Source of the DNA: Octopus vulgaris
Lineage: Eukaryota
NCBI GenBank assembly: GCA_951406725.2
Contig: OX597817.1
Span: 28,024,001 to 28,088,000 of the forward strand
Reading direction: 5' to 3'
Length of the DNA: 64,000 nucleotides
The notes under the pieces were generated by a model that saw only the letters and a program-made list of their open reading frames with translations, had not been told where the DNA came from and did not search any database. Positions 21,021-24,190 of the stretch are shown here, piece by piece. How positions within the stretch are numbered: position 1 is the stretch's first letter; the number at the start of each line of letters is the position of its first letter. The translations under genes were made by a program, and so were the position numbers.

Positions 21021-21608
<588 letters not shown>

Positions 21609-21732
21609 CATCACAATCAAGGAACGGCCATAATAGGCCATTCACCCACTAGAAATAACAGCCAAAAGCTTTAACCGCAAAATAACGTCAATTCCGTAAA
21701 CCAGGAGAAAATTGAAAAACATTTACCCTGTA

Positions 21733-21839
21733 ATTTCTTAGACGATGCACCGTTTCATCTTCTGTTTAATGGAAAACTAACCTGATTAAATTAAATCAAG
21801 CCAATCTACCATAGGCCCTTAGATTCATCAGTAAGAAAT
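21733..21839 (-). ncRNA. Type I hammerhead ribozyme (mirror copy)
   Basis: Reverse complement of 22308-22414; core intact. Confidence 0.8.
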
Positions 21840-22307
21840 AGCCAAACCGGAACAGATATTTTTCACGAGGCATTCTCATTGCTACCTCGTCAATATCTGA
21901 CCTAAAAATTTCAAATCGTCGCACTCGCGCCAAATTTATCGGCAGCAAATAAATATAGGCCGCCGATTCCATTACGGAATTAACCAGAAAATTCATAATT
22001 AATCAATATAGGGTGGCAAAAAAAAATTTTGTAGAATTCTTTTGCCACCAGCGGCCTAGTGGGAAAAAATTAAATAGTCATAAACCATTTTTAAGTTCAA
22101 CATCACAATCAAGGAACGGCCATTTTTTTGCCACCCTATATTGATTAATTATGAATTCTCTGGTTAATTCCGTAATGGAATCGGCGGCTTATATTTATTT
22201 GCTGCCGATAAATTTGGCGCGAGTGCGACGATTTGAAAATTTTAGGTCAGATATTGACGAGGTAGCAATGAGAATGCCTCGTGAAAAATATCTGTTCCGG
22301 TTTGGCT

Positions 22308-22414
22308 ATTTCTTACTGATGAATCTAAGGGCCTATGGTAGATTGGCTTGATTTAATTTAATCAGGTTAGTTTTCCATTAAACAGAAGATGAAACGGTGC
22401 ATCGTCTAAGAAAT
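22308..22414 (+). ncRNA. Type I hammerhead ribozyme with extended stem II
   Basis: Stem I ATTTCTTA (22308-15) pairs with TAAGAAAT (22407-14); CTGATGA 22316-22; stem II base ATCT/AGAT; GAAA 22391-94; stem III ACGGTGCATCGT; GTC triplet 22404-06. Confidence 0.82.
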
Positions 22415-22650
22415 TACAGGGTAAATGTTTTTCAATTTTCTCCTGGTTTACGGAATTGACGTTATTTTGCGGTTAAAGCTTTTGGCTGTTATTTCTAGTG
22501 GGTGAATGGCCTATTATGGCCGTTCCTTGATTGTGATGTTGAACTTAAAAATGGTTTATGACTATTTAAATTTTTTCCCACTAGGCCGCTGGTGGCAAAA
22601 GAATTCTACAAAATTTTTTTTTTGCCACCCTATATTGATTAATTATAAAG

Positions 22651-22683
<33 letters not shown>

Positions 22684-22685
<2 letters not shown>

Positions 22686-24190
22686 GGGTGTCCCTAAAAA
22701 TAATTACACATTTTAGCAGCTAATAACTTAATTGATGTTTTTTTTCTTTCCAGATAAAAACCATTGGAATTAATGATGGCAGTCTGACTAAGCTTTGAAC
22801 AAAGGAAATTCATTCGAAAATGCTACTGGAAATGTGGAGTGCAAAGACAGTTTAGAGGGGAGTTTCAAACAGATCCACCAATACGACCTACCATCATTCT
22901 AATTAGAGATAAGTTTGAAGCCGATGAAAATATTCAGAATGTCCACGAGAAGCGTTTCGGAAGACCTTGAACATCGACAACTCCCACAAAGCAAGAAGGA
23001 GTGCTGGAAACGATTCACCAAAGTCGAAGAAAATCAGTGAGGCAAGTGAATCGTGAGGTAACTATTTCAGAATCGTCTGTCCAACGCATGTTGAAGTGTT
23101 GTCAATGGAAAAGTTACGTTCCAAGATTAGTCCATCCTATTACTGACGATGATCCAAACCGAAGAGTGCAGTATCGTGAGTGGATGGAAGCACTCCGTCG
23201 GTTACGACGACGAGGGTTCCGGTTGATCCGATCAGCGGAACAGCCTGCTAATGAAATTAACGTGTAAGTGGCTGAGCACTCCACAGACACGTGTACCCTT
23301 AACGTAGTTCTCGGGGATATTTAGCGTGACACAGAGAGTGACAAGGCCGGCCCCTTGAAATACAGGTACAACAGAAACAGGAAGTAAGAGTGAGAGAAAG
23401 TTGGGGTGAAAGAGTACAGCAGGGATCACCACCATCCCTGCTGGAGCCTCGTGGAGCTTTTAGGTGTTTTCGCTCAATAAACACTCACATCGCCCGGTCT
23501 GGGAATCGAAACCACGAGTCCGCTGCCCTAACCACTGGGCTATTGCGCCTCCACAGTATCGTGAGTGGTACTTGGCACAATGTGTAGAGGACGCACACCT
23601 TCCAACAAATATTGCGTCGAGTAATGAAGCAATTTTCAAATTAAATGGTTCAATTAACCGCCACAATTGCACTTACTAGTGACCCAAGAATCCGTATGTT
23701 ATGGTGGAACACTATGTTAATTTACCAGAAGTTCCAGTGTGGTGTGACTTATCATCAAAAGGATTAATTGGACCATTCTTCTTTAACGCTAATGTGATTG
23801 GTCCCGTTTACTTGAACTTGCTGCAACAGTCTACCATGCCAAGCATCAGAGAAAGCTTTGAAGATAAGGAGGTTTATTTTCAGCAAGATGGGGTAACCCC
23901 ACACTACCATCGCGATGGTAGAACCTTCCTTGATGAGATCTTGCCAAACAGGTAGATTGGACGAAAGGCTTTCACTGAATACACTCTGCTTTACCAGATC
24001 TCACACCACTAGACTTTTTTCATGGGGATACCTAAAAGACAAAGTCTACGCTACAAAACCTGCAACAGTCACTGATTTGAAAGCAGCCATTGAACGAGAA
24101 TGCACACAAATACCAAACGGATTGTTTCGTGATGTTTGCGATTCCATTGCTTCGCGTTGCCAGCAGTGCCTGGAACAGAACGGATGTCAG
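22684..24190 (+). mobile_element. Decayed Tc1/mariner-superfamily transposon, DD41D (rosa/Visitor)-like
   Basis: TA|CAGGGTG end; motifs [53 protein letters not shown]; ~41 residues between the 2nd and 3rd D across a frameshift; right TIR not seen. Confidence 0.85.
23184..23553 (-). mobile_element. SINE family C (head 1, tail 2) inserted in the transposase, 15-bp TSD
   Basis: TSD CAGTATCGTGAGTGG at 23169-23183 and 23554-23568. Confidence 0.93.

Follow-up and report, generated by a model that had tools for sequence, protein, structure and literature searches.

A young retrozyme family whose inverted two-armed insertions in (TA)n point to copying of one RNA from two fixed sites, likely by a Penelope-like enzyme

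The inverted repeat at positions 21609-22646 of the window (the whole stretch of DNA analyzed, 64 kb in length) is best read, with a probability of roughly 70%, as an insertion of a young non-LTR retrozyme in which both ends of a break in (TA)n were extended on one RNA, starting at two fixed sites, likely by a Penelope-like reverse transcriptase (RT)-endonuclease. Repeat comparison and unit alignment resolved it into two permuted head-to-head copies of one unit, arm A (21609-22123, minus strand) and arm B (22123-22646, plus strand), which overlap by 1 nt at the inner junction (22123) and have (TA)n on both flanks, the left tract (21257-21608) representing the insertion target and the right tract spanning 22651-22683. 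The join had been placed at about 22123 between TA repeats from the letters alone, and it is indeed there. Over 416 nt (21609-22024 and 22123-22538) the inverted arms are complementary at 99%. Arm A (515 nt, 1.04 units) contains unit positions 394-494 followed by 1-416 with three substitutions and two one-base gaps and has its outer 3' end at fixed site A, while arm B (1.06 units) runs from unit 1 to 494 and on through 1-30 and has its outer 3' end at fixed site B. The terminal direct repeats measure 23 nt in arm A (21609-21631 and, as its terminal redundancy, 22101-22123, spacing 492) and 33 nt in arm B (22123-22155 and 22617-22649, spacing 494). The unit is 494 nt long in the right arm and 492 nt in the left, so that the previous figure of about 492 nt holds for the left arm only; likewise, the halves are permuted as the earlier note had claimed, but the redundancies beyond one unit, given there as about 25-30 nt, are 23 and 30 nt. 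With a GC content of 0.362 the unit lies below the retrozyme limit of about 45-50%. No coding capacity was detected (longest stop-to-stop frame of 68 aa within one 10-unit array), no RT or GIY-YIG ORF was present in the retrozyme arrays, which consist of the unit only, and neither the unit nor its arrays contain an LTR. A target-site duplication cannot be read at retrozyme loci because their flanks are (TA)n.

A BLAST-type check of the 2.8-Gb genome, as the earlier note had advised, returned 975 candidate places for the unit; other copies therefore exist, and in the loci analyzed they are not tied to a coding Penelope-like element (PLE). The best 40 of these 975 places were scored, showed 96-100% identity and were spread over many contigs. 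Hundreds of copies are 98-100% identical and arms extend up to 10.4 units in arrays that are homogeneous within a locus, both of which support the previous reading of a recent non-coding hammerhead repeat derived from a circle or an uncleaved multimer. On the forward strand the exact end-plus-TA patterns occurred 616 times for site B and 392 times for site A, compared to 0 for the controls. Since reverse-strand pattern counts were inflated by overlapping matches, the total of about 1,000-1,200 young insertions of the 494-nt unit in the genome is an estimate. Two samples were analyzed further, the 40 best-scoring places and 60 regions of contig 1 that were picked on one end only and serve as the unbiased sample. 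The fixed 3' ends, variable 5' ends and exact end junctions identify a non-autonomous 494-nt repeat that is dispersed by retrotransposition, and its head-to-tail organization, in which every unit has a type I hammerhead, is that of a retrozyme. Judged by its sequence, the insertion is a member of a new non-LTR retrozyme family, the element class itself being known. The family is likely present in related organisms too: three sequencing runs that carry the labels organism B, C and D gave contigs with 90-99% identity to the unit. Part of the unit was present in 20 of the 23 listed sequencing-run rows, of which none is recorded as RNA and 14 are only guessed to be, and contigs of four sequencing runs cover the unit, although contigs cannot show strand, ends or circles; these run data carry no weight in the reading given here. 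A subfamily with 90% identity and compensatory hammerhead changes was found in L174 (5337-9599) and L064 (6-4164); an array of this subfamily is bounded by a B end and an A end, and a younger insertion lies 293 nt away.

In the 64-kb window the type I hammerhead pattern has only two matches, one in each arm, at 21734-21838 in arm A (minus strand, predicted cut 21741/21740 by unit-to-window mapping) and at 22309-22413 in arm B (plus strand). The arm B hammerhead, which was additionally examined by cut mapping and variant alignment, comprises helix I (22309-22315 with 22407-22413), CUGAUGA (22316-22322), a long helix II (22323-22390) that holds a 60-nt insert, GAAA (22391-22394), a near-palindromic helix III and GUC. 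Cleavage is predicted after C22406 (22406/22407), corresponding to unit 284, and is thus located mid-copy rather than at a junction, in agreement with the previous proposal. An Rfam scan gave six matches at E<=1, all of them TA-repeat noise with the hammerhead not among them, a miss that is probably due to the 60-nt helix II insert. The circular MFE of the unit was -143.9 kcal/mol for the plus strand and -97.2 for the minus strand, and the helices named in the earlier note are present in the former. That note had also used folding as a marker of the RNA strand; the choice of the plus strand stands, but folding energy alone is a weak marker because the z scores against 40 dinucleotide shuffles are similar for both strands (-5.7 and -4.8). 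It is the orientation of the hammerhead together with the outward-pointing 3' ends that marks the RNA strand. The active hammerhead fold is missing from the monomer MFE. Among 16 hand-picked variants, 98.9% of the hammerhead cells were paired and two compensatory pairs were found, counts that are inflated by the kinship of the sequences. None of the locus-fixed changes affected the 11 hammerhead core positions, with N7 showing all four bases and H17 either C or A, while 95 of the 483 positions outside the core vary; by itself, this conservation of the core is not significant (p 0.09). Outside the curated structure, only 29-30 of 63 fixed variants at MFE-paired positions retain pairing.

All two-armed loci are divergent with their RNA 3' ends facing outward, and this inversion is the normal insertion form of the retrozyme family. 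With a spacing of about 110 nt, the outer ends map either to unit 412-420 (A) or to unit 23-33 (B) and end on AT into the TA tract, with (TA)4 following in 174 of 177 A/B ends. End mapping across loci places site A within arm B at 22526-22537 (unit ~404-415, the putative first reverse-transcription start) and site B at 22630-22646 (unit ~14-30, the putative second start, lying about 110 nt further downstream). An A end was paired with a B end in all 35 of the two-armed loci that the 40 best-scoring places contain, and the 60 contig-1 regions showed this pairing in 38 of their 43 two-armed insertions. The other five had one end that the script could not call; inspection by eye identified two as A+B, while three are still uncallable. 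Combinations of A+A or B+B were absent from the 73 two-armed loci with both outer ends callable, and under independent choice 73 mixed ends out of 73 have a probability of about 1e-22. Three further contig-1 pairs read as A+B from pattern positions alone, three apparent single-arm insertions conceal a short arm of the opposite type, and the remaining insertions are single arms. The inner ends, on the other hand, are variable and meet either with an overlap (at most 15 nt) or with inserted bases (at most 36 nt). When the permutation points were tabulated along the lines of the earlier note, variation was confined to the inner ends, while the outer ends proved to be fixed at two sites, a regularity that the note had not noticed.

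The two arms of a locus resemble each other more than they resemble other loci, with differences of 0.41% and 0.66% between arms compared to 1.06% and 5.6% between loci in the two samples. We found 42 locus-private variants that are fixed in all (at least three) copies, 32 of which span both arms. Overall, 70 variants were locus-fixed, 131 were limited to a single copy and 24 to a subset of copies, while none was confined to one arm. In 13 of 37 loci (3.3 in shuffles) the two arms have end points on the template that lie within 25 nt of each other, and without the cut-site arms co-terminal stops were still present in 5 of 25 loci compared to 0.84 in shuffles. Each arm includes template sequence that its partner lacks in 18 of 37 loci from contig 1 and in 4 of 34 from the best-scoring set, the present locus included.

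Copying past the predicted cut site was mostly clean. Crossings without indel amounted to 312 of 315; the best-scoring loci contained a single stop at the cut in 184 crossings, and in the contig-1 sample 2 of 24 later-pass crossings end at the cut. None of 110 minor variants recurred at the same lap in the partner arm. Repeated copying of a monomer would best explain the clean crossings and the lap data, and a circle would be the simplest such template. Periodic variants were noted in three arrays, L043 (period 4), L069 (period 2) and L067, for which tetramer or dimer circles, multimer templates or later duplication are candidate explanations. A different pattern emerged for the first pass in the unbiased sample: unit 284-321 is the end point of 20 of the 62 arms, compared to 3 of 42 and 2 of 64 for the 40-nt windows on either side. 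In 8 of 37 loci this applies to both arms (Fisher p 5e-5). The most upstream stop of this cluster is at 285, the first base after the predicted cut, and some insertions thus appear, from their end points, to derive from self-cleaved linear RNA. A transcription start or a roadblock at unit 285 may also produce the cluster without cleavage, and the Hydra-like element described below, whose short arms mostly stop upstream of its hammerhead, illustrates that stops may pile up for reasons other than cleavage. Stop rates are not raised at the 5' edge of the retrozyme hammerhead, and the idea of a second cluster at that place was rejected.

Among retroelements, the closest relatives of telomerase are the Penelope-like elements. 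This genome contains at least two such families that are young and intact, with clade labels assigned by motif; endonuclease searches used a locus-derived endonuclease fragment and PF01541. The first family encodes a 717-aa ORF with the motifs RWK, DKT and CxCX5C at a period of about 2,590 nt and on these motifs appears to match the description of the Hydra clade in the accessible text of PMC8557442. Pfam returned no family for this ORF and PDB one irrelevant weak match, while the ESM Atlas placed it with clusters carrying HTH_animal, GIY-YIG and RVT_1 at 0.96-0.99. The family is very young (L160-L173, L195-L224), with 1,277 exact matches to one end junction. It is inserted in (TA)n, and its two 3' ends are separated by 67 nt. 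One of each end was present in eight of nine young loci, the exception (L160) having two identical ends, and in all 13 callable loci of 30 that were picked on one end, the others being single (7) or outrunning the flank (10). The hammerhead of this element has a variant core (CCGA, GUU), and its short arms are co-terminal, mostly stopping at +174 to +199, possibly the transcription start of the element, and twice exactly at the hammerhead cut. The second family, likewise very young and TA-targeting (L255-L270), encodes a 781-aa ORF plus an upstream ORF and was provisionally called Neptune-like from its CxxxxCxxC linker, a motif given in the accessible text of PMC8557442; a short and a tailed end were found in all three two-armed loci among the 16 examined. 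The unit has no detectable similarity to either the Hydra-like or the Neptune-like family (best E 0.06), and the only unit-like sequences in the Penelope loci are separate retrozyme copies lying there. A derivation of the unit from the pLTR of one of these two families was consequently rejected. By analogy, the driver of the retrozyme is likely a Penelope-like enzyme, for which either family would be a candidate.

The animal retrozymes described previously (Cervera and de la Pena 2020; Li, Clavereau and Pollet 2026) resemble the present family in being non-coding, low in GC and arranged head to tail, each unit containing one type I hammerhead. Circular RNAs are established for animal non-LTR retrozymes, while tandem cDNA synthesis on circles and mobilization by Penelope elements have been proposed (PMC7229834; bioRxiv 10.64898/2026.07.22.740005), and in the accessible text of PMC7229834 and PMC4209133 the circle-template model of retrozyme spread is likewise a proposal. 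The 494-nt unit exceeds the range of 150-450 given in PMC7229834 and falls within the 51-972 of Li et al. In contrast to the known animal retrozymes, the present family has the 60-nt helix II insert, and its copies are dispersed in (TA)n as inverted two-armed insertions that end at two fixed points; the accessible text of PMC7229834 does not contain the word 'inverted', and that of Li et al. does not describe the two-armed inverted form. Similarity to Penelope pLTRs is reported for 21 of 57 Xenopus families of Li et al. or their matches, whereas none was found here with the two families compared.

The insertions exhibit the inverted 5'-truncated arm, the tail at one end and the microsatellite target of Penelope-type insertions, and an inverted 5'-truncated arm, a one-ended tail and (TA)n targets are shared with Hydra, Neptune and Poseidon PLEs as far as the accessible text of Craig et al. 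2021 (PMC8557442), Arkhipova et al. 2013 (PMC3846280), Frangieh et al. 2024 (PMC11167929) and Cervera and de la Pena 2014 (PMC4209133) describes them. Endonuclease-bearing PLEs also have, in these sources, a hammerhead with palindromic helix III, two internal start sites and tandem copies of more than unit length. Unlike these elements, the retrozyme has no ORF, a tail of about 110 nt instead of 30-40, a strict counted pairing, arrays of up to 10 units and genomic stops at the predicted hammerhead cut. A Penelope protein that is predicted to act as a dimer cuts and extends both strands in vitro, starting at two internal sites; both strands used both start sites, and pairing per molecule was not measured in that work according to its accessible text (PMC11167929). 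The origin of tandem and inverted Penelope insertions is called still undefined in PMC8557442. Retrozymes as well as Penelope inversions and tails are known, while strict A/B pairing per insertion, evidence for a single template and cut-site stops were not found in the literature searched, subscription papers and supplements (e.g. Fig. S9 of PMC7229834) aside.

In L1 twin priming both target ends prime on one RNA and the inverted arm is joined by microhomology, the first primer annealing to the poly(A) tail and the second at an arbitrary internal site. In the retrozyme, by comparison, both starts are fixed and internal and the template frequently exceeds one unit in length.

According to the mechanism that we propose, tandem retrozyme loci would be transcribed, the hammerhead would cut after unit 284 and the monomers would be ligated into circles. 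The enzyme, probably a dimer, would grip A and B of the same RNA, cut both target strands and prime both ends on the AT dinucleotide. On a circle each polymerase could run round up to about 10 times, whereas on a cleaved linear template both would halt near the RNA 5' end; end-joining would then fuse the two cDNA ends. The present insertion, each arm of which passes the cut once, would stem from an uncut template, most likely a circle. This leads to the predictions of one A and one B end per insertion, arms derived from one molecule, clean passage of the cut on circles and, on linear RNA, stops at the cut. The broader version, namely that Penelope-type enzymes perform obligate two-site twin priming as a dimer on one RNA and that the retrozyme RNA is a ribozyme-made circle reverse-transcribed as a double rolling circle over as many as ten laps, its cleaved form yielding short dead-end inserts, has in our view a little better than an even chance of being correct. 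If true, obligate two-site twin priming would unify Penelope inversions, tails and tandems, and the arrays would provide genomic evidence for circular RNA as a transposition intermediate. The value of the family lies in a countable record of how Penelope-type enzymes copy RNA: it is young, abundant and protein-free, and its insertions can thus be counted as records of single copying events.

Several other explanations were weighed. The same twin priming could have used uncleaved linear multimers, or template jumps between linear monomers, to generate the long arms, which we consider unlikely even though the periodic variants in L043, L069 and L067 and the stops near the cut after one or more laps in L079, L081 and L108 fit such templates. 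A linear multimer would need a monomer bottleneck followed by re-expansion to account for the 42 private variants present in every unit, and neither the lack of lap-matched variants (0/110) nor the single cut stop in 184 crossings of the best-scoring loci agrees with it; jumps would be expected to leave scars, whereas 312 of 315 cut junctions are clean. Even less probable is that the primed cDNA folds back and copies itself and that the endonuclease trims the second arm at the other site, for which the accessible text of PMC3846280 (a self-priming model) and PMC8557442 (the tail as a product of endonuclease resolution) offers precedents. Arms that lie head to head, carry the same variants and share their inner end points would likewise result from folding back, and local palindromes occur at some junctions (L037, L040). 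It is disfavored because neither arm contains the other in 18/37 and 4/34 loci, each of which would need an extra central deletion, and in vitro both sites are reverse-transcription starts with both strands extended (PMC11167929).

A later growth of short Penelope-type insertions by unequal crossing-over or slippage, in line with the local satellite amplification discussed in the accessible part of bioRxiv 10.64898/2026.07.22.740005, would suit the local duplication patterns of L067 and a few other arrays. We regard it as quite improbable as a general explanation, with subset variants rare (24, as opposed to 70 that are fixed and 131 found in one copy), up to 10 units per array in dispersed, very young loci of 98-99% identity, and private variants that cross the inversion. 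An assembly artefact of an inverted repeat in (TA)n is hardly credible: the same geometry with different inner junctions recurs in 73 loci on many chromosome-sized contigs, the arms differ at five positions and two coding families follow the same rule, while the lack of a listed contig bridging the 22123 junction in three other runs would fit an artefact, but such a gap proves nothing. Copying of one RNA from two fixed sites is thus the reading that we retain.

Two further features were noted next to the insertion. On its right flank, the sequence at 22684-23160 resembles a degenerate DNA-transposon fragment, with transposase-like wording recognized by eye. On its left, positions 21021-21257 contain a second short two-armed inverted insertion between TA tracts whose outer ends differ and lie about 65 nt apart. 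This repeat represents a separate family with 1000 candidate places, the best 40 of which scored at 85-98% identity, and an ORF was absent in the 20 loci checked.
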